Source of the DNA: an uncultured Planctomycetia bacterium
GTDB lineage: Bacteria > Omnitrophota > Gorgyraeia > VGKH01 > JBHPFN01
Reading direction: 5' to 3'
Assembly: GCA_964406665.1 (NCBI GenBank)
Contig: CAYOSQ010000009.1
Coordinates: 6,106 to 70,105, forward strand
DNA: 64,000 nt
The number at the start of each line of letters is the position of its first letter. The stretch's first letter is position 1. The position numbers and the translations under genes are program-made. The notes beneath the pieces were generated by a model, which was not told the origin of the DNA, searched no databases, and saw only the letters and a program-made list of their open reading frames with translations. Below are positions 1,811 to 37,559 of the stretch, piece by piece.

Positions 1811-1931
1811 AAAATCTTGACAAAAATTATAATAGTAGTTATAATTTAAACAAATTCTACAGTGTTGTATTTTAAGATTGAACAAAGGCGTTCTTAGTCA
1901 AGGACGTCTTTTGTTTTAGTTTGAGGTTAGA

Positions 1932-2070
1932 CCCGCACCTTTTTGGTATCCAAGGGGATGCTAAAAAGGTGATAAAAAAGTAGATAGATAAAAGGTGCGG
2001 GATTAATTCGCACAAGTGATTTACATCGCTTTCAGCTCAGTAAATCATGTGCTCATTAAATGGAGGAAAA
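1932..2070 (+). promoter_or_regulatory. Structured 5' leader (copy A of a shared nitrogen-gene leader motif). A GC hairpin with two alternative 3' partners is followed by a second hairpin that ends at the RBS.
   Basis: CCCGCACCTTTT (1932-1943) can pair with AAAAGGTG (~1964-1971) or with AAAAGGTGCGGG (1990-2001). The second hairpin is gcacaaGTGATTTAC (2010-2024) pairing with GTAAATCATgtgc (2040-2052). It is followed directly by tcattaaaTGGAGG and the ATG at 2071. Copy B lies at 8377-8540. Confidence 0.5.
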
Positions 2071-3657
2071 ATGAATCTGCAAAGACCAAATGCAAATGAT
2101 GTAACACAGACAGCGAATCGATCCAGGAATATTGCTCCTACTTCAGGACTTTGTACTCGCTGTATCGATGGTTGTCGCGGTAACTGTGAAGTATTCAAAG
2201 CTAGTTTTCGTGGCCGAGAGGTAATTTATCCAGGGCCGTTTGGAGAAATAACTGCCGGAGGAGATAAAGATTATCCGGTTGATTATTCGCATCTTAATAT
2301 TTTAGGTTATGCTATGGGAGCAAAGGGACTTCCTAAAGGAGTTAAAGGTGATCCTGATACTGCTATATTTCCTAAAGTAGATACTGAGACTGAATATGGT
2401 TGGAAAGATAAAGTAAAAATGGCAATTCCTGCATTTACCGGCGCTTTAGGTTCTACTGAAATCGCTAGAAAGAACTGGGAACATTTTGCCATCGGTGCTG
2501 CTATTTCGGGCGTAACGCTTGTCTGCGGAGAGAATGTCTGTGGTATAGATCCTGCATTAGAATTGGATTCTAAGGGAATGATTAAAAAAGCACCTGATAT
2601 GGATAGAAGGATTGAGACCTACCGTAAGTTTCACCAAGGATACGGAGAAATTCTTGTTCAGATGAATGTTGAAGATACTAGGCTTGGTGTTGCTGAGTAT
2701 GTTAGTAAAAAGCATAAGCTAAAGACTATCGAGCTTAAGTGGGGCCAAGGAGCAAAATGTATCGGAGGAGAAATTAAAGTTAAATCTTTAGAGAGAGCGT
2801 TGGAACTCAAAAAACGCGGATACATTGTAACACCTGATCCTACGCTTAAATCAGTTAAGCAGGCGTATAAGGCAGGAGCAATTAAAGAGTTCGAACGTCA
2901 TTCTCGCCTAGGGTTTGTTACTGAGGAAGATTTCTTCAAGGAAATTAAGCGTTTAAGAAATTTAGGTTTTGAGCGCATTACATTAAAGACCGGCGCCTAT
3001 CCTATGAGAGAATTGGCAATGGCGATTAAGTGGAGTGCTGAAGCTAAGATCGACCTTCTAACCATTGACGGTGCTCCGGGTGGAACAGGCATGAGTCCAT
3101 GGCGCATGATGGAAGAATGGGGACTTCCTACGTTCTATCTTCAGTCTTTAACTCATGAAATCTGTGAGAAGCTATCCAAAAAAGGTGTGAAGCTTCCTGA
3201 TATTGCTATTGCAGGAGGATTTTCTACCGAGGATCATATCTTCAAAGTATTATCAATGGGTGCTCCATATGTTAAATCTGTATGTATGGGGAGAGCCTTT
3301 ATGATTCCTGGTATGGTTGGTAAGAATATTGGATACTGGATTGAAGGAAAAGATCTTCCTAATACAGTTTCTCGTTTTGGTAAAAAACCAGAAGAGATCT
3401 TTGTTTGTTACAAAGAGCTTGAAGAGAAATACGGTAAGAGAATAAAAGAGATTCCTTTAGGTGCTATAGGAATTTATAGTTTCTCTCAGAAGTTAAGAGT
3501 AGGTCTGCAGCAGTTAATGGCAGGAACGAGAAACTTTAGTCTTCCGTCTATTTCTCGTAAAGATGTTGCCTGTCTTACCCAAGAGGCAGCTAAGATCTCT
3601 GGCATTCCTTATATTATGGATGCATATCGAGAAGAAGCAAATAAGGTATTGAAGTAA
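2071..3657 (+). CDS. Glutamate synthase family protein (archaeal-type GltB domain 2, FMN/Fe-S catalytic domain, COG0069-like)
   Basis: The N-terminal Cys cluster CTRCIDGCRGNCEV is followed by a GltB FMN-domain-like sequence. I prefer the ATG at 2071, which has a GGAGG RBS, over the track start at 2047, which lies inside the leader hairpin. Confidence 0.7.
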   Translation: MNLQRPNANDVTQTANRSRNIAPTSGLCTRCIDGCRGNCEVFKASFRGREVIYPGPFGEITAGGDKDYPVDYSHLNILGYAMGAKGLPKGVKGDPDTAIFPKVDTETEYGWKDKVKMAIPAFTGALGSTEIARKNWEHFAIGAAISGVTLVCGENVCGIDPALELDSKGMIKKAPDMDRRIETYRKFHQGYGEILVQMNVEDTRLGVAEYVSKKHKLKTIELKWGQGAKCIGGEIKVKSLERALELKKRGYIVTPDPTLKSVKQAYKAGAIKEFERHSRLGFVTEEDFFKEIKRLRNLGFERITLKTGAYPMRELAMAIKWSAEAKIDLLTIDGAPGGTGMSPWRMMEEWGLPTFYLQSLTHEICEKLSKKGVKLPDIAIAGGFSTEDHIFKVLSMGAPYVKSVCMGRAFMIPGMVGKNIGYWIEGKDLPNTVSRFGKKPEEIFVCYKELEEKYGKRIKEIPLGAIGIYSFSQKLRVGLQQLMAGTRNFSLPSISRKDVACLTQEAAKISGIPYIMDAYREEANKVLK

Positions 3658-3809: not shown

Positions 3810-5336
3810 TTAGAGTAGGGGAAGGTATTTCTTTATTTCATGCTGCGTGATCTGGATACGATATTCTTCCCATTCCCGCTTTTTGTTAAACAGAAATCTA
3901 CTGAATATATGTTCTCCTAAGGCATCTTTAACGAATGAACTTTTTTCCGTTTCAAGAATTGCCTCGAAAAGGTTTCCCGGTAGAGATGTCAGACCACGGC
4001 GCTCGCGTTCTTCCATTGCCATATTATAGATATTCGGCTCGACAGGAGCAGGGATGGCATATTTTTTCTCTATGCCTTCTAAGCCCGCTGCTAACATAAC
4101 CGCAAATGCTAAATACGGGTTGCAAGCAGGATCTGGACAACGTAGTTCTACGCGTGTTGCTTTTTCATTTCCCATGCGATACAAAGGGACTCTCAAAAGT
4201 GCAGTCCTGTTTCTCTGTGCCCAGGATGCATAAACCGGAGCTTCGTATCCTGAGACAAGTCTTTTATAAGAGTTTACCCACTGCGCAGTAAGAGAACATA
4301 TTTCACGTGCATGCTTTAATTGTCCGGCAATAAAACGCTTTGCAATAGGAGATAAGTGGTGCTTGTCTTTCTTATCAAAGAAAGCATTTTTGCTACCTTT
4401 AAACAAAGACTGATGTACGTGCATTCCTGAACCATTAACACCAAACATCGGCTTAGGCATAAAGGTAGCATAGACGCCTGCTTGCTGGGCGATTTCTTTA
4501 ATAACATATTTGGATGTAATCACATTGTCTGCAGCAGAAAGCGCATCGGAATATTTTGGATCAATCTCATGTTGAGAAGGGGCTACCTCATGATGGCTGG
4601 CTTCCATCGATACACCCATTTCTTCTAGTACCCGTATAGTCTTATTTCGAAGCGTATTGGCCAAGTCGTTGGGAATTAACTCAAAATATGAACCTTCATC
4701 AATAATCTCAGGTTTATGCGCAGACTTAAAATAGAAGTACTCAATCTCAGCGCCTACAAAAAATGTAAGACCATATTTATTCGCACGTGCCATTGCTCGT
4801 TTTAAGACGTAGCGAGGATCACCTACGTATGCACTTCTATCAGGGTTTAAGATATCGCAGAAAATGCGTGCTATAGGGTAATCACCTTTAGTCCAAGGGA
4901 GTATCTTAAAGGTAGTAGGATCGGGTTGAGCGATTATGTCGCTTTCCTCAGCTTCTGCAAAACCGGTAACTGAAGAACCATCAAAACCTTTACCATGCTC
5001 CAGAGCTTCTTTAAGTTCACCAGGGGTTATGGAAACACACTTTAAAATACCTAAAATATCCACGAACCACAGCTGAATGGTGCGAATCTTATTGTGTTCG
5101 ACCTTAGCTAGGATATCGCGTGCAATACGTTTCTTAGATGAAGTAAGCGCTGGGTTTTCAGCGCGCCTTGCTGCTTGAGATTTACGTTTAGGCAAAAGCG
5201 CATCCTTAGGGATTATGTACTGTCTGCCTGCTCGCTCAGCAGGGAGGGTGCCGTGTTTGATTTTATCGTTCACTGCTTGTCTAGAAATTCCTAAAAGCTT
5301 CGCTGCTTCTGTTGGACTTAAATATTCTTTATTCAT
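3810..5336 (-). CDS. Glutamine synthetase paralog (GSI-alpha-like catalytic domain) fused to an N-terminal excisionase/MerR-superfamily helix-turn-helix domain
   Basis: The N-terminus MNKEYLSPTEAAKLLGISRQAVNDKIKHGTLPAERAGRQYIIPKDAL is an HTH_17-type DNA-binding domain. A complete GS domain follows: DGSS, NGSGMHVHQS, NPY and SWAQRNRTALLRVP motifs, and an NIYNM adenylylation-loop-like segment. It is closely paralogous to the glnA at 8547. I prefer the start at 5336, which has an AAGGAGGT SD, over the track start at 5381. Confidence 0.8.
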   Translation of the reverse strand: MNKEYLSPTEAAKLLGISRQAVNDKIKHGTLPAERAGRQYIIPKDALLPKRKSQAARRAENPALTSSKKRIARDILAKVEHNKIRTIQLWFVDILGILKCVSITPGELKEALEHGKGFDGSSVTGFAEAEESDIIAQPDPTTFKILPWTKGDYPIARIFCDILNPDRSAYVGDPRYVLKRAMARANKYGLTFFVGAEIEYFYFKSAHKPEIIDEGSYFELIPNDLANTLRNKTIRVLEEMGVSMEASHHEVAPSQHEIDPKYSDALSAADNVITSKYVIKEIAQQAGVYATFMPKPMFGVNGSGMHVHQSLFKGSKNAFFDKKDKHHLSPIAKRFIAGQLKHAREICSLTAQWVNSYKRLVSGYEAPVYASWAQRNRTALLRVPLYRMGNEKATRVELRCPDPACNPYLAFAVMLAAGLEGIEKKYAIPAPVEPNIYNMAMEERERRGLTSLPGNLFEAILETEKSSFVKDALGEHIFSRFLFNKKREWEEYRIQITQHEIKKYLPLL

Positions 5337-5339
5337 GTC

Positions 5340-5425
5340 GTACCTCCTTGTCAATTGACAAGTATACCATAAACTTGTCATTTGTCAAGTAAAATCTTTT
5401 TTTACAAAAAAACTTGACAAAATGG
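5340..5425 (-). promoter_or_regulatory. Sigma70-type promoter overlapped by three inverted-repeat operator candidates built from TTGTCAA/TTGACAA half-sites
   Basis: Read in gene orientation the region is TTTGTCAAGT-(19)-ACTTGACAAA, then TGACAAGT-N9-ACTTGTCA, then the perfect palindrome CTTGTCAATTGACAAG just before the SD. TTGACA-16-TATACT promoter hexamers are embedded in the dyads. Confidence 0.6.
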
Positions 5426-5444: not shown

Positions 5445-5501
5445 CATGACGATGGAAGTCAAAGAGGCAATGTAGCCCCAATGTAATGGGGCAATTTTTT
5501 T
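5445..5501 (+). ncRNA. Candidate short transcript (sRNA or leader) divergent from the HTH-GS promoter
   Basis: A divergent TTGACA (5413-5418)-17-TATATT promoter is followed ~55 nt later by the clean intrinsic terminator GCCCCAatgtaaTGGGGCaattttttta (5475-5501). There is no credible ORF between them. Confidence 0.25.
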
Positions 5502-5564
5502 AGACAAAGATGTCCTGATTGAGATTTAAAGAATCTCGATGAGGATTTTTTTATTTTTTTGAAC

Positions 5565-5689
5565 GAAGACGTTCTTAATGACCTAAGAAAGGTTGGAGAA
5601 CGTCTTTTTTTTAGATTGTGACACAACTTACGTAAGCGTAAACGAGACGTAAGTTGTAAGTCACAAGCAACCCCGGACAAAGTCCGGGG
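5565..5689 (+). promoter_or_regulatory. Cluster of three hairpins upstream of the amtB-associated operon. The first is terminator-like.
   Basis: AAGACGTTCT...AGAACGTCTTtttttttt lies at 5565-5612. ACAACTTACGT...ACGTAAGTTGT lies at 5623-5657. CCCCGGACaaaGTCCGGGG lies at 5671-5689. Confidence 0.4.
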
Positions 5690-5716
5690 AAGGATAAGAA
5701 TAAAAAGGAGAAAATA

Positions 5717-6514
5717 ATGAGAAGATCAAAAATAAATTTTATTGTTTTAGCAATAGTTGTTTCAGTGTTTCTTGCTCTTCCTATATATGCTGTTGAAGTA
5801 AATGATCAGGAAGTAAATATTTCTGTTTCGCAAGTTTTTGTTTCAAGATATATCTGGCGAGGGCAGGATCTTTATGCACAAAATGATGCAGCTTATCAAC
5901 CCAGTATTGATATATCTGCTCCCGGGTTTTTATTTGGGACAGATGTAGGTTTGAATATCTGGGGGTCGTTTCCGTTGTCAGATGGCCACGAAGACGGCGA
6001 AGAGCTTGATTATACCTTGAGTTTTTCCAAAGATTTCTTTGATGGCCTGGTAAGTATATCAGAGGGTTACACCTATTTTGACTATCCTAATACATCAGAT
6101 ACTGCAGATGTGAGTGAACCTTGGGTAAACATTACGCTTAATGAGATTCCTAAACTTCCAATTCCCATTTCAATGTCAGTGTTTATGGGATATGATTTTG
6201 CAGCAGCTTCAGGTGGGCCTGATGAGGGCTGGTATTATTCCTGGGGTTTTGCTGGGGATATTGATTTACCTGAGTGGGAAATCTTCCAGGAAGATCAAGT
6301 AGTCTCTTGTAGTATTACTAATTGGGGCAATGACGGTGTTGCTGACCTTAAGCCCAGCACACTTTATGCAACTGATTTTTCGTTTTCAACCTCATATGCA
6401 TTTGGTGATATTAGTGTATCTCCTAGCTTAAATTATACTATGAACCATGAGGAAGCGATCAATTCAGGGGATAGTGAAATTTGGACCGGGATAGAAATCA
6501 GTTATGTATTCTAA
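5717..6514 (+). CDS. Exported hypothetical protein, possibly an outer-membrane beta-barrel, upstream of amtB
   Basis: There is an AAGGAG RBS. The signal peptide is MRRSKINFIVLAIVVSVFLALPIYA. The protein is rich in aromatic/Gly beta-strand-like segments and ends in a C-terminal Phe (..ISYVF). Confidence 0.5.
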   Translation: MRRSKINFIVLAIVVSVFLALPIYAVEVNDQEVNISVSQVFVSRYIWRGQDLYAQNDAAYQPSIDISAPGFLFGTDVGLNIWGSFPLSDGHEDGEELDYTLSFSKDFFDGLVSISEGYTYFDYPNTSDTADVSEPWVNITLNEIPKLPIPISMSVFMGYDFAAASGGPDEGWYYSWGFAGDIDLPEWEIFQEDQVVSCSITNWGNDGVADLKPSTLYATDFSFSTSYAFGDISVSPSLNYTMNHEEAINSGDSEIWTGIEISYVF

Positions 6515-6576
6515 TAACCCCAAAGGGGTTATTGGCCCGCGAACTAATTACTAGCGGGCTTATAAAGGAGGCAACG

Positions 6577-7950
6577 ATGTTGAGACGCTTATTTAGATAT
6601 AGATTTATCAAACTTGTTTTATTAGGAATTGTGGCAGTTAGCATAATGCTGGGAACTGCTTTTGCTGATGATGCTACAGCTGAAAGTAATTCCGTAGCAA
6701 TTAATACAGTTTGGACCCTCATTGCAGCATTTCTGGTTTTCTTTATGCAGGCTGGATTTGCTATGGTTGAGACTGGTTTCACCAGGGCAAAAAACGCAGC
6801 CAATATTATGATGAAGAACTTAATGGATTTTAGTGTAGGTTCTATCGCCTATTGGCTGATTGGATTTGGAATTATGTTTGGCACATCTGCGTGGGGGCTT
6901 TTCGGTAAGGACGGGTTTTTCTTAAGCTCAGGTGATCCTTCCACCGGTGAAGGTTTATGGCAGTTTGCATTTTGGATGTTTCAGACTGTGTTTGCAGCTA
7001 CCGCTGCTACTATAGTTTCTGGTGCAATGGCAGAGAGAACAAAATTTTCTGCCTACCTTTGGTATAGTGTTTTTATAACCGCTCTTATTTATCCTGTTGT
7101 AGGTCATTGGATTTGGGGTGGTGGATGGCTTTCCGCCAAGGGAATGATTGATTTTGCTGGTTCTACAGTGGTTCATTCGGTTGGTGGCTGGGCTGCGCTT
7201 GCAGGTGCAATTTTGCTGGGTCCTCGCTTGGGTAAATATAATAAGGACGGTTCTTCTCGGGCTATCCCAGGGCACAATATTCCTTTGGCAGCTTTGGGTG
7301 TGTTTATTTTATGGTTTGGATGGTTTGGCTTTAATGCCGGAAGTACGACAGCAGGCACTAATTTAAGCATAGCTACAATAGCGGTTACAACTAACTTAGC
7401 AGCAGCAGCTGGAGCTATAGCTGCGATGTCTACTGTTTGGATTCAATTTAAGAAACCTGATACTAGTATGGCTTTAAATGGTGCTTTGGCTGGACTCGTT
7501 GCGATAACGGCTCCTTGTGCAAGCGTTTCTCCGTTGAGTGCAATTATTATAGGAGCTCTTGCTGGAGTTGTTGTTGTTTTCAGTGTTGAGTTTATCGATA
7601 AGGTACTGAAGGTTGATGATCCTGTGGGTGCTATATCGGTGCATGGTGTTTGCGGTGCCTTTGGAACATTGTGTGCTGGTCTGTTTGCAGAAGCTGCTTA
7701 TGGTGAAGCCAGCGGCGTGGGAGCAGTTAATGGTCTTTTCTTCGGCGGTGGATGGAGCCAGTTTTTAACACAGCTAACAGGTGTTGTTTCAGTATTTTTA
7801 TGGGTATTTACATCTGCATTTATTTTGTTTTTCGTAGTTAAGAAGACAGTAGGTTTGAGAGCTTCAGATGAAGAGCAACTCAAAGGGCTTGATATTAGCG
7901 AGCATGGGATGGAGTCTTATTCTGGTTTTCAAATCTTTACAAATGAATAA
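6577..7950 (+). CDS. amtB: Ammonium transporter AmtB
   Basis: The RBS AAGGAGG is followed by the ATG at 6577. It has a signal-like N-terminus and typical Amt family TM motifs (FAMVETGF, VHSVGGWAALAGAILLGPRLGKY). The track start at 6481 overlaps the upstream gene and is rejected. Confidence 0.9.
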   Translation: MLRRLFRYRFIKLVLLGIVAVSIMLGTAFADDATAESNSVAINTVWTLIAAFLVFFMQAGFAMVETGFTRAKNAANIMMKNLMDFSVGSIAYWLIGFGIMFGTSAWGLFGKDGFFLSSGDPSTGEGLWQFAFWMFQTVFAATAATIVSGAMAERTKFSAYLWYSVFITALIYPVVGHWIWGGGWLSAKGMIDFAGSTVVHSVGGWAALAGAILLGPRLGKYNKDGSSRAIPGHNIPLAALGVFILWFGWFGFNAGSTTAGTNLSIATIAVTTNLAAAAGAIAAMSTVWIQFKKPDTSMALNGALAGLVAITAPCASVSPLSAIIIGALAGVVVVFSVEFIDKVLKVDDPVGAISVHGVCGAFGTLCAGLFAEAAYGEASGVGAVNGLFFGGGWSQFLTQLTGVVSVFLWVFTSAFILFFVVKKTVGLRASDEEQLKGLDISEHGMESYSGFQIFTNE

Positions 7951-8023: not shown

Positions 8024-8365
8024 ATGAAACTAATTGTTGCGATGATACAGCCTCATAAATTGCCGGATGTAAAGAAAGCACTCTATGGTGCTGAGGTTTT
8101 TAAGATGACTGTGACAAATGCATTGGGTTGTGGCCAGCAGAGAGGTTATACTGAGACATATCGTGGTGTAGAACAAGAGGTAAATCTTCTAAAGAAGATT
8201 CGAGTCGAGGTCGCGGTCAATGATGATTTTGTTGAACCAACAATTGAGGCGGTTGTTAAAGGTGCCCGCACAGGTAATATTGGAGATGGAAAAATATTTG
8301 TATTAGATTTACCCGAATGCATACGCATAAGAACAGGGGAAAGGGGGAATGAGGCTATCGGATAG
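8024..8365 (+). CDS. glnK: Nitrogen regulatory protein P-II (GlnK/GlnB)
   Basis: The 113-aa protein is [20 protein letters not shown]...GYTETYRG..., including the T-loop (RGxE), and it immediately follows amtB. A hairpin GCTCAGGG...CCCTGAGC lies in the 73-nt spacer. Confidence 0.9.
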
Positions 8366-8376
8366 TAAATTTTCCC

Positions 8377-8540
8377 CGCCCTTTTGGTAGGGTGGGATAA
8401 AATAAAAAAGTCACCAAAAGGGCGGGATCACGTTTACGAGCAGTCAAGCAGCTCGTAAAGTGCTGCTTGTGCTGTAATTTTGCGCATATGATTTACGTCG
8501 TTTAAGGAGACTCCGTAAATCATGCGCTCATTTAAGGAGG
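8377..8540 (+). promoter_or_regulatory. Structured 5' leader (copy B of the nitrogen-gene leader motif) upstream of glnA
   Basis: The GC hairpin is CCGCCCTTTTGGT (8377-8389) pairing with ACCAAAAGGGCGG (8413-8425). Mutually exclusive hairpins follow: TTTACGAG/CTCGTAAA and AAGCAGC/GCTGCTT. The final hairpin is GCGCAtaTGATTTACG (8482-8497) pairing with CGTAAATCAtGCGC (8514-8527). It is followed by TCATTTAAGGAGG and the ATG at 8547. The sequence and architecture parallel 1932-2070. Confidence 0.5.
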
Positions 8541-8546
8541 AATAAA

Positions 8547-9884
8547 ATGGCTAAACAATTAACAAAGAAACAAAAGATTTTAAAGTTAGTAAAAGAAAAA
8601 GATGTAAAATTTATCAGGTTATGGTTTACGGATGTTCTTGGACAGGTTAAGAGTTTCTCAATTACCGATAGCGAATTGGAAAATGCGCTAGAAAGCGGCA
8701 TGGGCTTTGATGGTTCTTCAATTACAGGCTATCAGGATATTGAAGAGTCGGATATGATTGCTATGCCTGATCCTGATACCTTTGCGATTCTTCCCTGGAG
8801 GCCAAAGGAAAAGGCAGTGGCGCGTATGATCTGTGATGTGTTAACTCCTGATAGAAAGCCTTACGAAGGAGATCCGCGTTATGTATTAAAGAGAGCTTTA
8901 GAGCGGGCTAAAAAAATGGGATATGATCATTTCTACCTAGGGCCGGAGCTGGAGTTTTTCTATTTTAAAAAGGACGATGGTATTGAGATATTGGATAAGG
9001 GTGGATATTTTGATCTAACTACTCTCGATGTTGCCAGTGATCTAAGACGTGAGACTGTTTTAGCACTTGAGCAGATGGGAATTAATATTGAATATTCTCA
9101 TCACGAGGTTGCACCTTCACAGCATGAAGTAGATATGCGCTATAAAGATGCCTTGATTATGGCTGACAGCGTAATTACTTACAGGGTTGTGGTTAAAGAG
9201 ATCGCTAGTAAGTTCGGTGTGTATGCTACTTTTATGCCAAAGCCAATCTTCGGAGAGAACGGTTCAGGCATGCATGTACATCAGTCACTTTTTAAGGGAT
9301 CAAGGAATGCATTCTTTGATGTAAAGTCAAAAGACTTTTTATCAGACACAGCACGCAGATATATTGCAGGTCTCCTAAAGCATTCAAAAGAGATTTGTTC
9401 TATTTTTGCTCAGACAACTAACTCTTATAAGAGATTAGTTCCTGGATACGAGGCACCAGTTTACATTGCCTGGAGCCGTAGAAACAGAAGTGCGTTGGTC
9501 AGAGTTCCTCTGTATCATCCGGGACAAGAGAAGGCAACACGCTGTGAGTTTAGAGCCTGTGATCCGGCTTGTAATCCGTATCTTACCTTTGCCGCAATGT
9601 TACACGCTGGGTTAGATGGGATTGAAAAAGGATATAAAGTTCCTGCCCCTATGGAGCAGAATCTTTATCACTTAAGCGATACCGAGAGAAAGAAAAAAGG
9701 TATCCAGACATTGCCGGATAGCTTGGGACATGCAATTTCAATGACTGAGGAAAGTAATCTTGTAAGAAAAACATTGGGAGATCATATATTTCCTAGGTTT
9801 GTTGAGTTAAAGAAAAAAGAATGGGATGAATACAGAATTCAGGTTCCGCAGCATGAGCTTGATAAATATCTTTCTATTTTGTAA
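8547..9884 (+). CDS. glnA: Glutamine synthetase, type I-alpha-like (445 aa)
   Basis: The catalytic motifs are complete: GFDGSS, KPIFGENGSGMHVHQS, NPY and AWSRRNRSALVRVP. It has a GGAGG RBS. Confidence 0.9.
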   Translation: MAKQLTKKQKILKLVKEKDVKFIRLWFTDVLGQVKSFSITDSELENALESGMGFDGSSITGYQDIEESDMIAMPDPDTFAILPWRPKEKAVARMICDVLTPDRKPYEGDPRYVLKRALERAKKMGYDHFYLGPELEFFYFKKDDGIEILDKGGYFDLTTLDVASDLRRETVLALEQMGINIEYSHHEVAPSQHEVDMRYKDALIMADSVITYRVVVKEIASKFGVYATFMPKPIFGENGSGMHVHQSLFKGSRNAFFDVKSKDFLSDTARRYIAGLLKHSKEICSIFAQTTNSYKRLVPGYEAPVYIAWSRRNRSALVRVPLYHPGQEKATRCEFRACDPACNPYLTFAAMLHAGLDGIEKGYKVPAPMEQNLYHLSDTERKKKGIQTLPDSLGHAISMTEESNLVRKTLGDHIFPRFVELKKKEWDEYRIQVPQHELDKYLSIL

Positions 9885-9985
9885 TTGATAAGCTCGCGCT
9901 GTGGCTTTTTTAAAAAGCCACAGCGCACTAAGGATTCCTTTACAATTTTTATGCCTGATATTTAGGCGGTTAAGGATTGAGAATA

Positions 9986-10249
9986 ATGCAGAAACATGCT
10001 CAAGAAATGACCAAAGAGTTGGAATTAAAAACAGCAATTGACAATATTGATGATTTTTTCTTAAAGAGTAAGCAGAAGGAGTTGTATAAATTTATTATCG
10101 AGACAGTTGAGAAGCCGCTTATTGAAAGGACACTTGAGAGAACATATGGTAATCAGATTAAAGCAGCGAAACTTTTAGGAATAAACAGAAATACCTTGCG
10201 CGATAAGATTAAAAGGCTCAAAATAGATGTTAATAAATGGAAGCTTTAA
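9986..10249 (+). CDS. Fis-family DNA-binding protein (stand-alone Fis-type HTH)
   Basis: [46 protein letters not shown] closely parallels the C-terminal half of Fis and the NtrC HTH. I prefer the ATG at 9986, which has an AAGGA RBS. Confidence 0.65.
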
Positions 10250-10254
10250 ACCCG

Positions 10255-10384
10255 GGTTTGCCATAGTTAAAATTTTTACTGGGCAGGCAAATCCGCCCGT
10301 AGGGCCGATACGGCGCGACAAGTTGCGACTATCGGGGTTAACCCTAGCTAGAAAGCGATTTATCTCGCCTTGGCGAGATAAAAT
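10255..10384 (+). promoter_or_regulatory. gltB leader with three hairpins and a GGGTTAACCC palindrome
   Basis: GGGTTTGCC...GGCAAATCC lies at 10255-10295. CCGATA...TATCGG lies at 10306-10336. The perfect 11-bp stem TTTATCTCGCC-ttg-GGCGAGATAAA lies at 10358-10384, 17 nt before the ATG. Confidence 0.35.
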
Positions 10385-10401
10385 TTGGGTAATATAAAAC
10401 A

Positions 10402-13400
10402 ATGAATAATCATTTTCCCAAAAAACAAGGATTGTACGATCCGTGCTTCGAGCATGATGCTTGCGGCGTAGGATTTATTTGCAATATCAAAGGCAATAAG
10501 TCTAACGAGATCGTCAATCAGGGTTTGAATATTTTAAAAAGATTAGCCCACCGCGGAGCTGTGGGAGCAGATCCTGAAACCGGTGATGGCGCAGGAATCT
10601 TAATTCAAACGCCGCATGCATTTTTCCAAAAAATTGCGCAACGTGAAGGAATTACTTTACCTGATGAAGGCTCATATGGAACTGGATTAATATTTTTACC
10701 CCCTGATAAAAAAGAGCGTGAGTTCTGTAAAGATGTATTCAAAAAGACAATTGAACAAGATGATCATACACTTCTTGGTTGGCGCAAGGTTCCAGTTGAT
10801 GATTCCTGTATCGGAAAGACTGCCAAAGCTACACAGCCAGTGATCGAGCAAATATTCATTAAGAAAAATGAGGCATTCAAAGAACAGCTTGCCTTTGAGC
10901 GCAGGCTCTATGTAATCAGAAGAATTGTTGAAAACACAATCAGTGCTTCAGATTTAAAACAAAAATCTTACTTTTATATTACAAATATTTCTTCGCGTAC
11001 ATTTTTGTATAAGGGTCTGCTTATGACCAATCAACTTGAGGATTTCTTTGTTGATCTTAAAGATAAAGATTTAAAGAGTGCTTTGTGCCTGGTGCACTCT
11101 CGTTATAGCACCAATACATTTCCTACCTGGGATTTATCTCAGCCGTTTCGTTTTCTAGCACACAACGGAGAGATTAATACTTTACGCGGCAACATCAATT
11201 GGATGAGGGCGAAAGAAGATTTATTATTTAGTCCTTTATTTGGAGATGATATTGAGCGGATAAAACCAATTGTAGTTCCCGGGGGAAGTGATTCTGCAAG
11301 CATTGATAACGCCTTTGAATTATTAGTGCTCTCAGGTAGATCTTTGCCTCACGTAATGATGATGCTTATTCCTTCAGCCTGGGAACAAAATCATTTGATG
11401 GATGAAAAGCAGAGAAAGTTTTATCAATATCATACTTGTTTAATGGAGCCTTGGGATGGGCCAGCTGCGATTGCATTTACTGATGGCTTGCGAATCGGCG
11501 CAGTGCTTGATAGAAACGGTCTTCGACCTGCCCGCTACATTGTCACTAAGCAAGATATGGTGGTTATGGCATCTGAGGTGGGAGTACTTGATATTAAGCC
11601 AGAAGACATTGCCTATTCTGGCAGGCTTGAGCCGGGAAAAATTTTCTTCATCGATACAAAAGAGGGTCGAATTATTGATGATAAAGAGATTAAAGATACA
11701 GTCTCAAGTCAGTGGCCTTATGATAAATGGCTTAAAGATTGTTTGATTGAGATAGAAAAATTACCTGCTCCGCAAGAAAAACAAAAACCTTCAGATGATG
11801 TTCTTACACAGTTGAAAGCCTTTGGTTATGCGCGTGAAGACCTAAGTGTTTTACTTGGACCTATGGCAGAAACCGGTCAAGAGCCAACAGGTTCAATGGG
11901 TAATGATACGCCACATGCAGTTTTGTCAAAGAGGCCGCAGCTACTTTATAGTTATTTTAAACAATTGTTTGCTCAGGTTACTAATCCTGCGATCGATCCT
12001 ATTCGGGAAGATCTGGTAATGAGTCTGGAATGTTATATGGGTTCTCGCAGGAATCTGCTTGATGAAACAGCTCAGCATTGTCATAAGGTGCGTTTAAAGC
12101 AGCCGGTTTTAACTAATAAAGAATTAGCAAAATTAAAATATATAAATGAAAGAGGTTTTAAAACCAGAACAATATCTCTACTATTTAAAGCAAAAGAAGA
12201 GAATGCATTCTCCCAAGCCCTGGAACGTATATCTAAAGAAGCTAAGGCAGCAATACAGGAAGGATGTTCTTTTGTGGTATTAAGTGACCGCGGTGTAAAC
12301 AAAGATTTTGCAGCCCTGCCAGCATTACTTGCAATTGGTACAGTGCATCAATATCTGGTTAAAGATACTTCGCGCTCCCAAATTGCAATTATTTTAGAAA
12401 GTGCAGAACCTAGAGAAGTACATCACTTTGCCGTGCTTTTTGGTTTTGGCGTAGGTTGTGTTAATCCTTATCTGGCATATGAATCTTTAGAATATCTTAT
12501 TAAAGAAAAAGATTTATCCCTTGATTTTAAAACAGCACAGAAAAATTACATCAAGGCAATAAATAAAGGGGTATTAAAGGTACTTTCAAAAATGGGAATA
12601 TCTACTTTACAGAGTTATCGCGGTGCCCAGATATTTGAAGCCTTGGGTTTAAATGATGAGATTATTGAGAAGTGTTTTAAAGGCACAGTATCGCGTATTG
12701 GCGGTGCAGGGATTGATGTCATAGAAAAAGAAACAATGCTTCGCCACCAAGAGGCGTTTCCCCTTCGGGGAAACGACGACGTGGGGTTTCTCCCCACAGG
12801 TGGGGTTTATCAGTGGAAAAGAGACGGAGAGTTTCATCTTTGGAACCCTGAGAGCATATCAGCTTTGCAGGATGCCACTAGGTTTAATGATTACCAGCTT
12901 TATAAAAAATTCGCTAGGTTTTTTAATGATCAATCAAGCCAGCCCACAACTTTGCGTAGCCTTCTGGAATTTAAGCAAACCAAACCTATTTCTATTGATA
13001 AAGTAGAGCCGGTTGAGAGTATATTCAAGCGTTTTGCTACAGGGGCAATGAGCTTTGGTTCAATCTCTCGTGGTGCACACGAGACCTTAGCCATTGCTAT
13101 GAATAGAATCGGGGGAAAATCCAATACAGGAGAAGGCGGGGAAGACCCAGAGCGTTTTAAAACATTGCCCAGTGGAGATTCTGCCCGCAGCGCTATAAAG
13201 CAGGTGGCATCCGGAAGATTCGGTGCTACAACTAATTATTTAGTAAATGCAGATGAAATTCAAATAAAGATTGCTCAGGGTGCTAAGCCCGGTGAAGGCG
13301 GCCAACTTCCCGGGCATAAGGTAAGTGAAATTATTGCCCGGACAAGACACACTACACCCGGGGTTACTTTAATTTCACCTCCGCCGCATCATGATATTTA

Positions 13401-14928
13401 TTCAATTGAAGATTTAGCCCAGCTTATCTTTGATTTAAAGAATGCCAATCCTAAAGCACGCATAAGTGTAAAGCTGGTTTCAGAAATAGGTGTGGGAACA
13501 GTTGCTGCAGGCGTGGCCAAAGGCCACGCAGACATGATTTTAATCTCTGGTGCAGACGGCGGAACAGGTGCGTCACCGAGAAGTTCTATTATGTATGCGG
13601 GCCTGCCTTGGGAATTAGGTCTTGCGGAGACTCATCAGACATTAGTTTTAAATAATTTACGTAGCCGTGTGCGTCTGCAAACCGATGGTCAGATGCGTAC
13701 CGGCCGAGATGTTGCCATCGCTGCAATTTTAGGCGCTGAGGAGTTTGGTTTTTGTACCTGTGCATTAGTTATTTCCGGATGTGTTATGTTAAGACATTGC
13801 CATCTGAATAATTGTTCTGTGGGAGTTGCCACTCAGGATGAAGTCTTAGAGAAAAGATTCAAAGGAAAGCCTGAGTACGTAGTAAATTATTTTCATTTTG
13901 TTGCCCAGGAATTAAGAGAGGTTATGGCACAGCTGGGAATAAGGCGCGTGGAAGATTTAGTGGGTAGAACAGATTTAATTAAAGTAAATCAGGAGATTGT
14001 CCCCTGGAAGGCAAAAGGGATTGATTATTCCCGGATTCTTTACAAGCCCAAAGTAGATAAGAAAGTTGGGGTTTATTGCACGCAGGCGCAGGATCACGGA
14101 ATCGAAAGTGTGTTGGATAAAAAATTAATTAAGTCTGCTAAGCCGGCGTTGGAAAAATCCCAGCCGGTAACAATTGAATCAGAAATAAAAAATAATAACC
14201 GCACCACAGGAACAATGTTAAGCGGTGAGGTTTGTAAAAAGTTTGGTGAGCAGGGCCTGCCTGAAGATACTATAAGATGTAAATTTACCGGAGTGGCTGG
14301 GCAGAGTTTTGGCGCCTGGTTGGCTAAGGGTGTGACTTTTGAACTCGAAGGTATGGCTAATGATTATATCGGAAAAGGTATCTTCGGTGGAAAGATTATT
14401 GTTTACCCCAGTTCAAAAGCCGATTATTCACCGCAGGATAATATTATTATAGGTAATACTACCTTTTACGGTGCAATAACAGGCCAGGCATATATCCGGG
14501 GATTAGCCGGAGAAAGATTTTGCATCCGTAATTCCGGATTACACGCAGTTGTTGAAGGTGTTGGCGATCACGGTTGTGAATATATGACTGGGGGCAGAGT
14601 GGTAGTATTAGGTAAAACCGGGAGGAATTTTGCCGCCGGCATGTCCGGAGGTATTGCTTATGTGTATGATACAGATAATACATTTAAAGAAAAATGCAAT
14701 ATGGGAATGGTCGAGCTAGAAGAGCTTTTGGAGGAAGATAGAGAGACAATTATTAGTTTGGTCAATAACCATTACAACTATACAAAGAGCGAAGTTGCAA
14801 AGAATGTTTTAGATAATCATACAAGCGAATTAGAAAAATTCGTCAAAGTTATGCCTATTGAATATAAGCGGGTGTTAGAAGGTTTGAAAGTGAAGAAGTC
14901 AAAATCAGATGAGGTTTCTGACGGTTAA
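10402..14928 (+). CDS. gltB: Glutamate synthase large subunit (1508 aa; GATase, FMN and GXGXG domains)
   Basis: The N-terminus CGVGFI is the Ntn amidotransferase signature. The central FMN domain and the C-terminal GXGXG domain are present along the full length. Confidence 0.95.
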   Translation: MNNHFPKKQGLYDPCFEHDACGVGFICNIKGNKSNEIVNQGLNILKRLAHRGAVGADPETGDGAGILIQTPHAFFQKIAQREGITLPDEGSYGTGLIFLPPDKKEREFCKDVFKKTIEQDDHTLLGWRKVPVDDSCIGKTAKATQPVIEQIFIKKNEAFKEQLAFERRLYVIRRIVENTISASDLKQKSYFYITNISSRTFLYKGLLMTNQLEDFFVDLKDKDLKSALCLVHSRYSTNTFPTWDLSQPFRFLAHNGEINTLRGNINWMRAKEDLLFSPLFGDDIERIKPIVVPGGSDSASIDNAFELLVLSGRSLPHVMMMLIPSAWEQNHLMDEKQRKFYQYHTCLMEPWDGPAAIAFTDGLRIGAVLDRNGLRPARYIVTKQDMVVMASEVGVLDIKPEDIAYSGRLEPGKIFFIDTKEGRIIDDKEIKDTVSSQWPYDKWLKDCLIEIEKLPAPQEKQKPSDDVLTQLKAFGYAREDLSVLLGPMAETGQEPTGSMGNDTPHAVLSKRPQLLYSYFKQLFAQVTNPAIDPIREDLVMSLECYMGSRRNLLDETAQHCHKVRLKQPVLTNKELAKLKYINERGFKTRTISLLFKAKEENAFSQALERISKEAKAAIQEGCSFVVLSDRGVNKDFAALPALLAIGTVHQYLVKDTSRSQIAIILESAEPREVHHFAVLFGFGVGCVNPYLAYESLEYLIKEKDLSLDFKTAQKNYIKAINKGVLKVLSKMGISTLQSYRGAQIFEALGLNDEIIEKCFKGTVSRIGGAGIDVIEKETMLRHQEAFPLRGNDDVGFLPTGGVYQWKRDGEFHLWNPESISALQDATRFNDYQLYKKFARFFNDQSSQPTTLRSLLEFKQTKPISIDKVEPVESIFKRFATGAMSFGSISRGAHETLAIAMNRIGGKSNTGEGGEDPERFKTLPSGDSARSAIKQVASGRFGATTNYLVNADEIQIKIAQGAKPGEGGQLPGHKVSEIIARTRHTTPGVTLISPPPHHDIYSIEDLAQLIFDLKNANPKARISVKLVSEIGVGTVAAGVAKGHADMILISGADGGTGASPRSSIMYAGLPWELGLAETHQTLVLNNLRSRVRLQTDGQMRTGRDVAIAAILGAEEFGFCTCALVISGCVMLRHCHLNNCSVGVATQDEVLEKRFKGKPEYVVNYFHFVAQELREVMAQLGIRRVEDLVGRTDLIKVNQEIVPWKAKGIDYSRILYKPKVDKKVGVYCTQAQDHGIESVLDKKLIKSAKPALEKSQPVTIESEIKNNNRTTGTMLSGEVCKKFGEQGLPEDTIRCKFTGVAGQSFGAWLAKGVTFELEGMANDYIGKGIFGGKIIVYPSSKADYSPQDNIIIGNTTFYGAITGQAYIRGLAGERFCIRNSGLHAVVEGVGDHGCEYMTGGRVVVLGKTGRNFAAGMSGGIAYVYDTDNTFKEKCNMGMVELEELLEEDRETIISLVNNHYNYTKSEVAKNVLDNHTSELEKFVKVMPIEYKRVLEGLKVKKSKSDEVSDG

Positions 14929-14939
14929 GGGAATGAACA

Positions 14940-16367
14940 ATGGCTGATCCTAGAGGTTTCCTAAAATTTAAAAGAAAAAAATCTGCCTACCGTCCTGTAA
15001 AAGAACGTGTGGCTGATTATAAAGAAGCCAGTATTCTGCGCCTTGAAGATAGTTCTAAAGAACAGGCCTCACGCTGTATGGATTGCGGTACGCCATTTTG
15101 CCATTGGGGCTGTCCTATCGGTAACCATATCCCCGAGTGGAATAACCTTATGTTTCAGGGAAAGTGGGAAAAGGCATTTCAGCTGCTTGATGCTACAAAT
15201 AATATGCCGGAGATTACCGGCAGGCTTTGCCCTGCATTGTGTGAATATGCCTGTGTCTTAGGAATTAATGATGATGCTATAACCATAAGAGAAAATGAGC
15301 TCGATGTTATTGAGCTTGCATTTAAACATGGTTTGATTAAACCCAGGCCGCCGAAGCAACGTACAGGCAAACGTGTTGCAGTTGTAGGTTCTGGGCCGGC
15401 AGGATTATCTTGTGCAGCCCAGCTTAACAAAGCCGGACACAATGTTGTTGTATTTGAGAAGTCTGCCAAAGTCGGCGGAATTTTGAGATACGGCATTCCT
15501 GATTTTAAACTGGATAAAAAAATAATCGATAGGCGTCTTAAGCTTTGGCAGAAAGAAGGCATTGAATTCAAGACTTCTGTTGAGGTAGGCGAAGATTATC
15601 CTAGCAAAAAACTCTTAGATGAATTTGATGCTGTGTGTTTAACAGGTGGCAGTTCTGTGCCACGAGATCTTAATATCGAGGGAAGGGAATTAGCCGGCAT
15701 TCATTTTGCTATGGATTATTTGGTTCAATCAAACCAACGCGTGGCAGGTGAAAAGATCCCTAAGGATAATCTTATTGATGCCCAGGATAAAAAAGTTGTG
15801 ATTATCGGCGGTGGAGATACGGGCGCAGATTGTGTGGGGACTGCCAATAGGCAGGGTGCCAGCAAGATAGTGCAACTTGAAGTATTGCCTAAGCCGCCAG
15901 TCGATCGCACGGATGATTTCCCTTGGCCAACATACCCAATGTTGCTTAAAACCTCTACTTCACATGAAGAAGGCGCAGATAGACAATGGAGTATTCTGAC
16001 TAAGAAGTTTTCCGGTGAGGGTGTTAAGGTTGAAAAACTTCATTGTATTCAAGTTGAGTTTGGGCCAGAAAAGGATGCACACAATCGCCCTATTATGAAA
16101 GAGGTAAAGGGCAGTGAGTTTGAGATTGAGGCAGACTTAGTTATTCTGGCAGTTGGATTTATTCATCCCCAACATGGAGGCCTGCTTAATCAGCTTGGGT
16201 TAGAGTTTGATGTTAGGGGTAATGTAAAGACAGACGAAGATTTTCAAACTTCCAAAAAGAAAATCTTCTGTGCAGGAGATATGAGAAGAGGCCAATCACT
16301 TATTGTTTGGGCGGTGTATGAAGGCCGCGAGGCTGCTAGGGCGATAGATGGTTATCTCAGCAAGTAG
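14940..16367 (+). CDS. gltD: Glutamate synthase small subunit (NADPH-dependent)
   Basis: Two Cys clusters are present (CMDCGTPFC, CPALCEYAC). Two Rossmann folds are present (VAVVGSGPAGLSCA, VVIIGGGDTGADC). Confidence 0.9.
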   Translation: MADPRGFLKFKRKKSAYRPVKERVADYKEASILRLEDSSKEQASRCMDCGTPFCHWGCPIGNHIPEWNNLMFQGKWEKAFQLLDATNNMPEITGRLCPALCEYACVLGINDDAITIRENELDVIELAFKHGLIKPRPPKQRTGKRVAVVGSGPAGLSCAAQLNKAGHNVVVFEKSAKVGGILRYGIPDFKLDKKIIDRRLKLWQKEGIEFKTSVEVGEDYPSKKLLDEFDAVCLTGGSSVPRDLNIEGRELAGIHFAMDYLVQSNQRVAGEKIPKDNLIDAQDKKVVIIGGGDTGADCVGTANRQGASKIVQLEVLPKPPVDRTDDFPWPTYPMLLKTSTSHEEGADRQWSILTKKFSGEGVKVEKLHCIQVEFGPEKDAHNRPIMKEVKGSEFEIEADLVILAVGFIHPQHGGLLNQLGLEFDVRGNVKTDEDFQTSKKKIFCAGDMRRGQSLIVWAVYEGREAARAIDGYLSK

Positions 16368-29958: not shown

Positions 29959-30121
29959 TTAGTTATTTTATGCCTAAATAGTTGCCTTATTAGTAAGTGT
30001 TAACAACAAATAAATTATAGACGTTGTAGGCAATTCGGAAGATAAATGTAGGTTCCTGGAAATTTCAAAACGTAGTAGTAGTTTTCAAAAAGTATTATGC
30101 TATAACGAAATTTGTACAATA

Positions 30122-30459
30122 GGTACGTGTCCCCGGAATTCCGGGGACACGTACCTAATTTCAACTACGTAGTTGAAATTAAAAAGTACGTACACCCTTC
30201 GAGTGCTGCTCACTAAAGTTCGCAAGCTCGGGTACGTACTTTGAGGAATACACCCTACACTTCACTTAAGATATAGACTAGTGAGTGTTGTGGCCAGGAT
30301 GTAAATAATGGGCCACTAACGGGTGCGATTAAGGAAGGCACCTGCACAACAGGTGCGATTAATTCCAGCTGACTTATGTTCCTTGGCGTCCATAAGTCAG
30401 GGAATTAATCGAAGGTACACCCTCGTTTCACATCGGGTGCGTCGAGGCCGAAGGCCTCG
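30122..30459 (+). repeat. Dense array of palindromes and structured repeat modules (modules 1 and 3, a long bipartite hairpin, and a TCGAGGCC-gaa-GGCCTCGA hairpin) ending at the RBS
   Basis: A 34-bp perfect palindrome GGTACGTGTCCCCGGAATTCCGGGGACACGTACC lies at 30122-30155. ATTTCAACTACGTAGTTGAAAT lies at 30158-30179. Module 1 lies at 30184-30241 and module 3 at 30250-30327. The hairpin GATTAATTCC..CTGACTTATG...CATAAGTCAG..GGAATTAATC lies at 30357-30410. A short hairpin lies at 30441-30459. Confidence 0.7.
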
Positions 30460-34128: not shown

Positions 34129-34165
34129 AGAAATCTTGGGCTGGTTCATCCAGAATATGTAAAAG

Positions 34166-34197
34166 AAAAGTACGTACTCGAGTACGTACTTTTTTTA
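34166..34197. terminator. Bidirectional terminator formed by a 28-bp perfect palindrome with a GTACGTAC core
   Basis: AAAAGTACGTACTCGAGTACGTACTTTT is followed by TTT. It sits between convergent genes. Confidence 0.7.
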
Positions 34198-37237: not shown

Positions 37238-37480
37238 AATAATAATATTGAGAGATAATTAGGTAAGCTGTATTTTACTATTGTCTTATGAGCTTGTCAA
37301 GAGGGCTTGTTAGTTGGGCTGTTCGTTAACGGCTTTTGACTACGCCCCGCAAAAAGCGCGGGATTGCTCCCTAAGATAAATCTTAGGGAGACTATAGTGA
37401 CTACAGTCTTTCTAAAGCTTGCTTTAGGAAGCCCTAAAGAATTGGGCTTTACCCTAATAGTTCCCTGTGGGACGTAGTTT

Positions 37481-37511
37481 CAAGAGTACGTACCTTAAGT
37501 ACGTACTCTTG
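37481..37511. repeat. Perfect 13-bp-stem palindrome with a GTACGTAC core
   Basis: The sequence is CAAGAGTACGTACcttaaGTACGTACTCTTG. Confidence 0.6.
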
Positions 37512-37559
37512 AATAATAGTTATATACTTCTTTCCTTAATAGTGCTATTATGGGCTATT

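Follow-up and report, generated by a model that had tools for sequence, protein, structure and literature searches.

Two nitrogen-assimilation genes in a 64-kb stretch of DNA from an uncultured Omnitrophota bacterium (contig CAYOSQ010000009.1; the whole stretch is referred to below as the window) are preceded by copies of the same structured element, which consists of a GC-rich hairpin (H1) and a rod-like hairpin (H2) that ends at the Shine-Dalgarno (SD) sequence. Copy A lies upstream of a GltB-like gene and copy B upstream of glnA, and the initial annotation read the pair, from its gene context, as a glutamine- or nitrogen-responsive riboswitch or attenuator. Contrary to this, both copies belong to a generic family of intergenic hairpins, and we are highly confident that H1/H2 is a member of this gene-boundary family rather than a nitrogen sensor, because its copies adjoin many unrelated genes.

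In copy A, H1 is a long GC-rich hairpin on the plus strand (1932-2001; CCCGCACCUUUU / AAAAGGUGCGGG) that folds at -28.2 kcal/mol (z -6.4), with an outer stem formed by 1932-1943 and 1990-2001. H2 follows on the same strand as a rod-like hairpin (2003-2059), for which folding and a covariance model described below (R1, 66.1 bits) give the same structure: P0 (2003-2007/2055-2059) is separated by a UC/UC loop from P1 (2010-2014/2048-2052), a 2-nt bulge leads to P2 (2017-2024/2040-2047), and an internal loop and a short P3 complete the rod. The base of H2 lies 3 nt from the start of the SD (GGAGG, 2062-2066, plus strand), which is followed by the ATG of a 528-aa gene (2071-2073). Copy B opens 10 nt past the stop codon of the P-II gene glnB with a 14-bp GC-rich H1 (8375-8388/8413-8426, plus strand), after which no U-tract is found on either strand. 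Its H2 (8475-8534, plus strand; 65.9 bits with R1, and again recovered in folds) comprises P0 (8475-8479/8530-8534, with a single U-U mismatch), P1 (8482-8486/8523-8527), a UA bulge, P2 (8489-8497/8513-8521), a UC/UC loop and P3 (GUUU/AGAC), and it runs into the SD AAGGAGG (8534-8540, plus strand) ahead of the glnA start codon (8547-8549).

The resemblance between the two H2 hairpins far exceeds expectation. Where 0.01 occurrences of the hairpin pattern TGATTTAC..GTAAATCA would be expected there are two, the 18-mer GTAAATCATGYGCTCATT on the 3' side of H2 is likewise found twice against an expectation of 0.2, and a covariance model made from unrelated metagenomic copies gives 66 bits for both window copies (E ~1e-14). 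As the initial annotation had stated, H2 ends at the SD in both leaders, and the change from GCACA/TGTGC to GCGCA/TGCGC between them is a real compensatory one, the pair being AU in 29, GC in 18 and CG in 1 across the family. The common architecture that it described holds in part: H1 and then H2 are present in both leaders at the places given, but the architectures are not identical because copy B alone has an additional hairpin between the two (8441-8474, plus strand, ~48 nt, core CAAGCAGC/GCUGCUUG), which itself competes with an alternative helix, UUUACGAGC/GCUCGUAAA. The 3' arm ACCAAAAGG, assigned to both copies, was found only in copy B. The mutually exclusive helices can be drawn for H1 of copy A, where an inner hairpin (1936-1951/1956-1971) offers a second pairing, but they are missing from copy B and from the family.

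A metagenome scan that used the two H2 arms as its pattern returned 114 stretches. About 50 of these also share flanks that the search did not impose, conforming to ...GGG(A/U)U(A/U)AAUUCGC(R)C NNA UGAUUUAC [variable hairpin] GUAAAUCAUG(Y)GC UCAUU(N)AA, and have a GC-rich hairpin upstream; the rest are unrelated (CRISPR-like repeats and coding regions). The covariance model R1 was built from 49 copies and, together with the metagenome scan, gives about 67 good H2 copies overall. R1 also detects divergent copies in labelled Omnitrophota metagenome-assembled genomes (MAGs; loci L071 and L007 in our numbering), with more in metagenomic contigs. On 80 related loci the exact H2 pattern has no match, the divergent copies there being detected by the covariance model only, and a scan of viral contigs for the element gave no match. 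The initial annotation had itself named membership in a generic intergenic repeat family as an outcome that would overturn its hypothesis, and both copies do belong to such a family, whose members flank unrelated genes.

Throughout the family, H2 keeps the form of an unbranched rod, with four helices (P0-P3) and neither junction nor pseudoknot. P0 (5-6 bp) is followed by a 2x2 UC/UC loop, P1 (4-5 bp), a bulge of 2-3 nt in the 5' strand, P2 (8-9 bp) and, usually beyond a second UC/UC loop, a variable P3 with its loop; sequence conservation across genomes is strong in P1, in P2 and at the loop nucleotides. In alignment A3, whose 33 sequences were fitted to the model, a procedure that favours structure, 94% of cells are paired and 9 of 14 pairs are changed on both sides (examples being CG 18/GC 11/AU 3, AU 17/CG 10/GC 5 and UA 19/CG 11/GC 3). 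The covariation score of A3 is 0.486, as against 0.162 when shuffled and at most 0.096 with slid partners. The P0 helix lay outside both the search pattern and the first model structure, yet it covaries (AU 24, UA 12 and CG 8 at one pair), with a score that was reached by none of 500 shuffles. Four same-sense copies within 12 kb of L141 have compensatory differences in P1 and P2; in these copies AAAUUCG and CUCAUUUAAAGGAG are unchanged, and the flanks and SD are identical. The second hairpin that the initial annotation had drawn thus finds support in covariance analysis, which reveals a conserved, structured element with genuine covariation. Copy density ranges from 2-4 per 64 kb in the window up to 4 per 12 kb in L141.

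The full element has the form H2'-H1-H2, two rods of about 60 nt that stand inverted around a variable GC-rich central hairpin. H1 is this variable central module, and window copies A and B represent the single-arm H1-H2 form. A complete unit in L071 consists of a terminator U-run, H2', H1 (CCCAGCACUAAUUUU...AAAAUUAGUGCUGGG), H2, an SD and an AUG, and has the inverted ends TGAGC...GCTCA, that is, the terminal inverted repeats characteristic of miniature inverted-repeat transposable elements (MITEs). In L007, H2'-H1 lies between amtB and glnB, and pairs of minus- and plus-strand matches 30-260 nt apart are common (L121, L146, L149, L171, L180, L181 and L187). H1 is similar within one genome and different between genomes. 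One recurrent type, CCCTTGACAT...ATGTCAAGGG, occurs in L121, L171, L149, L093, L124, L145 and L181, and some of its copies hold TTGACA-N17-TAAAAT; an H1 with such promoter hexamers may also act as a promoter, from which transcription would begin directly at H2.

The placement of 67 copies was surveyed. An SD and AUG lie 18-29 nt past the basal stem in 24 of them (19 and 20 nt in the window), and six have an AUG 7-10 nt past the stem and no SD. In about 16, the stop codon of a gene on the other strand is embedded 1-9 nt from the basal stem and, read in the sense of that gene, the hairpin starts at its stop codon; further copies abut a terminator U-run. The outer end of H2 accordingly has either an SD or start codon 2-8 nt off, or the stop codon or terminator of an other-strand unit, and it carries reverse-strand stop codons in two frames. 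In a Pfam scan, ten downstream genes encoded rubredoxin, a class-IV aminotransferase, ketol-acid reductoisomerase (IlvC), RNase PH, PlsX, a cold-shock protein (CspA), DnaB, ribosomal protein L22, NadA and BirA. No consistent link of the family to nitrogen-metabolism genes emerged, the adjacent genes being unrelated housekeeping genes. In three contigs the element directly follows the gene for a 630-aa product that we take to be DnaK from its N-terminus, read by eye.

SD-less starts 2-5 nt after the H2 helix were seen for the DnaB, BirA, ExeA-like ATPase, L22 and NadA genes (L166, L180 at 5381, L181, L182, L102 and L121). The element of L182 lies just upstream of the L22 gene, after an open reading frame (ORF) that we presume, by eye, to encode S19. 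In L119, two tandem H2 copies have a c-di-GMP-I riboswitch (5673-5755, 71 bits) as a neighbour on the other strand, at a distance of about 50 nt.

At the gathering score, Rfam has no match on the window and none for the element on 20 element-bearing loci. The comparison with glnA/glutamine-II and Downstream-peptide models proposed in the initial annotation came out negative, with neither listed on either leader even at E<=10; permissive scans of both leaders at this threshold returned noise only and no glutamine-riboswitch model. A weak match to freshwater-2 (27.6 bits) was discarded as an artefact resting on the SD and unrelated hairpins. Our literature search returned nothing relevant on the motif sequence and nothing specific on Omnitrophota repeats.

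With its filters off, R1 picks up two weaker members in the window. The third member lies on the minus strand (5609-5689; 27.6 bits, E 9e-5, with folds in agreement) in the leader of the operon for a 265-aa protein, amtB and glnB. It comprises an inverted H2 (H2', 5609-5674), with a P2 allele CAACUUAC/GUAAGUUG that is also present in the L141 copies, followed by an H1-like hairpin CCCCGGAC..GUCCGGGG (5671-5689) and then an SD. The fourth (30355-30414, plus strand; 23.2 bits, E 0.0014) sits among long hairpins that are clustered ahead of a GMP-synthase-like gene (ATG 30480), and its detection bears out a kinship that had been suspected with 30321-30365, if only as a weak family member at 23 bits. 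Five or six very stable hairpins (z -10) precede the same gene (30100-30440). A perfect palindrome built on AGTACGTAC recurs at three places at least (30100-30440, 34163-34196 and 37479-37513), and these sites look like another intergenic palindrome family.

Comparison with relatives shows where the element is absent and how it evolves where it is kept. In the closest genomes (L001, L004 and L005) the Glu_synthase-domain gene lies about 35 nt after the upstream Fe-S gene, and in other relatives it is preceded by a promoter and a terminator-containing leader without H2. Where glnA follows glnB in L003, L033 and L034 (GlnA 83-84% identical), the spacer of roughly 10-90 nt contains neither H1 nor H2. 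Selection was assessed at the orthologous 3' end of dnaK in L107 and L125. The proteins are 86.5% identical, the genes 75.5% and the third codon positions 47.2%, as against 88.7% for the 115-nt non-coding stretch that holds H2'-H1 and a terminator; two pairs are changed on both sides, from A-U to G-C in H1 and from C-G to U-A in P3. As the identity of the element (88.7%) is so far above that of third positions (47.2%), the element is under selection and is not a decaying insertion. The orthologous copy at the dnaK 3' end is thus under purifying selection.

The copy A gene and the amtB operon are probably controlled by nitrogen in another way, through separate upstream attenuators of the ANTAR type. 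ANTAR targets are defined as two short hairpins with A1/G4 hexaloops, the second of which overlaps a terminator, and have been reported upstream of genes for P-II, ammonium transporters, glutamine synthetase (GS) and glutamate synthase (Ramesh et al. 2012, PMC3369931). Two window regions, 1858-1918 and 5475-5612, have this architecture, with A1/G4 loops and P2 as the 5' base of the terminator. The first (plus strand; terminator scan and folds) lies in the copy A leader between H1 and a sigma-70-type promoter that is context rather than part of the element (1817-1845, plus strand; TTGACA-17-TATAAT, 12/12 consensus match). Its P1 is TAC-AGUGUU-GUA (1858-1869), with a stem of only 3 bp, and its P2 is GAAC-AAAGGC-GUUC (1880-1893), the 3' half of which also serves as the 5' strand in an intrinsic terminator (stem at 1884-1911, with a U-run to 1918). 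The second, in the amtB-operon leader (plus strand), is a tandem arrangement: P1, GCCCC-AAUGUAAU-GGGGC (5475-5492), is followed by P2a, GAC-AAAGAU-GUC (5503-5514), with a terminator and U-run to ~5560, and by P2b, GAAC-GAAGAC-GUUC (5561-5574), with a terminator and U-run to 5612. H1 and H2 do not have these features, being long-stemmed, without the A..G.. pattern in their loops and free of any overlapping terminator. The likeness to known ANTAR-target antiterminators (PMC3369931) therefore extends to 1858-1918 and the amtB leader and not to H1/H2, and the attenuators likewise precede genes of the P-II/Amt and glutamate-synthase types.

The motif [GA]A[CA]-loop-GU[CU] followed by a terminator occurs at about 55 sites in Omnitrophota loci (L001-L071), often in tandem, and the P2 consensus of this attenuator family is GRAC-AAAGGC-GUYC. 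An upstream P1 with a 6-7-nt loop, A1 and G4 is present at 30 of 54 sites, against 11.7 +/- 2.9 in shuffles. A tblastn search found no ANTAR-domain regulator encoded in the 64-kb window; in many Omnitrophota relatives, a GAF-ANTAR gene (Pfam) lies directly upstream of the orthologous GltB-like gene. An ANTAR-type terminator in L071 (11640-11975) is immediately followed by H2'-H1-H2, an SD and a putative GS-like gene, and one in L136 (minus strand, ~1847-2000 in that orientation) by H2'-H1(-H2), an SD and what we take, from its N-terminus, to be a CTP-synthase-like gene. In both loci the element comes after the terminator, as it does in the amtB leader and at copy A of the window. The ANTAR-type P1 was also considered as a sigma-54 promoter (GGCAC..GTGC) and rejected, since GG and GC are wrongly spaced and are not kept where the stems covary. 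In other Omnitrophota a palindrome, TGCCTAAAAATTAGGCA, recurs both in leaders of the GltB-like gene and close to ANTAR-type elements (L007 at 9964, L008 at 3399 and 3772 and, by eye, L003, L016, L021 and L023), of which the window has a degenerate version at ~29970; it may be a transcription-factor site.

We read the element as a generic gene-boundary RNA module, and taking family membership and mechanism jointly we think this reading probable, though well short of assured. For the mechanism by itself, a role in RNA stability or processing, our proposal is tentative, and we would give it somewhat less than an even chance. According to this proposal, which draws on the analogy with REP, Correia/ERIC and RNase III-site hairpins, the element would be co-transcribed with the neighbouring genes and, as a stable terminal or intercistronic structure of the RNA, would work in a generic way, probably through recognition by a conserved protein or nuclease acting in trans. 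The processing and the stability of the mRNA, the protection of its ends included, would depend on the element, which would leave the ribosome-binding site (RBS) free at the base of the helix and would not sense glutamine or nitrogen.

A number of observations weigh against this. A hint of RNA-level action, the excess of G-U pairs on the sense strand of gene-preceding (5' untranslated region) copies (107, versus 54 antisense), is weakened by the lack of this bias in 3'-end copies, and base composition could account for it. The metagenomic contigs that carry family copies are mostly without a taxonomy label. At the two corresponding sites the nearest relatives are without the element, and truncated and tandem copies exist, which together fits a mobile repeat. 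Within the window, the nitrogen-assimilation cluster holds three of the four members, with the leader of the GMP-synthase-like gene holding the fourth, and there may be a lineage-specific link of the element to nitrogen-regulated leaders, which we keep in play because the L071 and L136 copies follow ANTAR-type terminators. Finally, RNA-level action, a role in stability or processing and a trans factor are steps that we infer. The concentration of window members in the nitrogen cluster is a caveat, and it is not borne out by the unbiased metagenome sample. The reverse complement of H2 is more stable by about 3.2 kcal/mol in every class; on our own reading its UC/UC loops become tandem GA/GA, and we therefore regard this stability as a property of the motif and not as a sign of selection.

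Of the other explanations, the one that survives best is that of a selfish repeat, REP/MITE-like mobile palindromic DNA of intergenic spacers without host function, which would abut stop codons and SDs only by virtue of short spacers and of ends that by chance provide stops or an SD. The dispersal of the family, with several copies per contig (four in 12 kb of L141), the inverted terminal hairpins of full elements, the truncated and tandem copies in L118, L119 and L151, the gaps at orthologous sites of close relatives, an H1 that is alike within a genome and unlike between genomes, and the reverse-strand stops in two frames at the outer end all speak for it. We nevertheless consider it unlikely, given that the dnaK-3' orthologues are conserved far above synonymous sites and have compensatory changes, that P1, P2 and the loops are kept across genomes, and that the spacing to the AUG is tight (18-24 nt). 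Element ends have no consistent target-site duplication, viral contigs gave zero matches, and no linked transposase was noticed, although no systematic search for one was made.

A bolder version of the gene-boundary reading is that H2 would be the recognition hairpin of an undescribed "punctuation" system of Omnitrophota-like bacteria, in which a sequence-specific RNA-binding protein or endonuclease marks cistron boundaries. Stop codons, terminators, SDs and SD-less start codons would then be built into the helix base, and polycistronic transcripts would be cut or capped into units with hairpin-protected ends, near-leaderless mRNAs such as those of dnaB, rplV, nadA and birA included. This is speculative, and we hold it to be distinctly unlikely.

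That H2 is instead a translational operator, bound by a global RNA-binding regulator beside the SD or start codon of many genes, strikes us as quite improbable. Such an operator would be in keeping with the conserved sequence of the helices, bulge and internal loops, with the fixed distance to the SD/AUG and with those SD-less start codons that directly abut the helix, but the hairpin also occurs in opposite orientation at gene 3' ends and past terminators, where there is no initiation, and no candidate protein was identified. Very little speaks for a DNA-level site, be it a cruciform, a promoter module or a palindrome that is bound by a protein such as a nucleoid protein or a recombinase. The palindromic arms occur in either orientation, and the CCCTTGACAT...ATGTCAAGGG type of H1 has promoter-like hexamers in L121 and L171. 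However, the distance between the conserved arms ranges from 8 to 45 nt and is thus unsuited to a fixed dimeric operator, the stems tolerate G-U pairs, and the way in which the element is positioned with respect to the SD/AUG and stop codons argues for the transcript. Least tenable of all, and largely refuted, is the reading of H1/H2 as a glutamine- or nitrogen-responsive riboswitch or attenuator common to the GltB-like gene and glnA: despite the conserved structure, the two alternative pairings in copy A H1 and the position of both strong window copies and the weak third in nitrogen-assimilation leaders, the family flanks unrelated housekeeping genes and gene 3' ends, orthologous nitrogen leaders are without it, the unbranched rod has no ligand-pocket features, no expression platform was found (no U-tract after H1/H2, and an SD outside the helix), neither a glnA nor a Downstream-peptide match appears even at E<=10, and the alternative pairing of copy A is not conserved in copy B or the family.

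Five further readings were tried and rejected. H2 does not serve as a sigma-70 promoter (TTTACA-17-AATCAT), as its inter-arm spacing varies from 8 to 45 nt, nor as a kink-turn or box C/D-like motif, as the UGA past the bulge is engaged in Watson-Crick pairing. A conserved small ORF from the AUG in AUGAUUUAC was discarded because stop positions vary and copy A has GUG. H1 is not an intrinsic terminator, with a U-tract on neither strand, and an integron attC-like site is contradicted by flanks that are conserved housekeeping operons and by the lack of a GTTRRRY core.

Among described systems, the REP/BIME elements of enterobacteria and pseudomonads (with the REPINs) resemble our family as dispersed, imperfect extragenic or intercistronic palindromes that occur in either orientation, often in inverted pairs, and are co-transcribed. 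REP/BIME elements protect upstream mRNA from 3' exonucleases. H2 differs from them in being longer (about 60 nt, with four helices), in a sequence that is conserved between genomes rather than species-specific, and in an outer end that lies exactly at the SD, start or stop codon. REPs are described as having a GTAG/CGTC tag (PMC3733652), whereas H2 ends without GTAG or CGTC and is flanked by UUCG and CUCA. Correia (NEMIS) and ERIC/IRU elements are similar in their length of 100-250 nt, inverted ends, location beside genes, co-transcription and long hairpins. Correia and ERIC elements can carry promoter hexamers, and their cleavage by RNase III or RNase E alters mRNA stability. Unlike them, our element was found to have no TA or other consistent target duplication, its ends are autonomous hairpins and not mutually pairing arms, half elements (H1-H2 or H2'-H1) are common, and an orthologous copy is under strong purifying selection.

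The RNase III hairpins of T7 and the 5' stabiliser stem-loops of the ompA and aprE type share with H2 a helix of ~22-25 bp with conserved internal loops, a location between cistrons or just 5' of the RBS, and an SD left free at the base. This likeness is one of geometry alone, and the sequence conservation of H2 exceeds what RNase III needs. With glutamine riboswitches (glnA RNA and Downstream-peptide/glutamine-II), nothing is shared beyond the gene context of copies A and B, and H1/H2 lacks a model match, a three-way junction, a pseudoknot and a family-wide link to nitrogen genes.

The surrounding cluster comprises two Fe-S subunit genes (195-1810), the 528-aa Glu_synthase-domain gene downstream of copy A (2071-3657), a gene fusing an HTH_17 domain to GS (3810-5381, minus strand), the gene for the 265-aa protein, which has no Pfam family (5717-6514), amtB (6481-7950), glnB (8024-8365), glnA (8547-9884), a gene for a small HTH_8 protein (9977-10249), and gltB and gltD (10402-16367). 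The nearest relatives of the 528-aa protein are from Candidatus Omnitrophota MAGs (88-75% identity). Contigs of the same population (>=99.7% identity) are present in several JGI and ENA metagenomes, and a contig search with the P-II protein found solely this population (>=99.7% identity) and no informative variation. The 265-aa protein is encoded by the first gene of the amtB-glnB operon and is kept in the same-population contigs. The GS at 3810-5381 bears its HTH_17 DNA-binding domain at the N-terminus; the promoter/5' untranslated region of its gene contains a perfect 16-bp palindrome, CTTGTCAATTGACAAG (5347-5362), and more TTGTCA repeats overlap the -35 (region 5347-5390), which suggests an autoregulated GS-type transcription factor. 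The HTH_8 protein, encoded between glnA and gltB, is a 90-aa protein of the Fis type. The 150-nt GC-rich leader of gltB (10250-10400) is apparently structured, and it gave neither an Rfam match nor an ANTAR-type motif.

Our analysis removes a false candidate glutamine riboswitch. The nitrogen control of the cluster probably moves to the ANTAR-type attenuators, which extends their logic to an uncultivated phylum. What takes the place of the riboswitch is a widespread structured element, absent from Rfam 15, that has strong covariation, is under purifying selection and stands at gene boundaries. Model R1 lets annotators mask such hairpins, so that they are not mistaken for gene-specific regulators. 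Should a role in processing or stability and a dedicated factor be confirmed for the element, it would show how bacteria with small genomes organise their polycistronic mRNAs, and a compact natural "insulator plus RBS" part may become possible.

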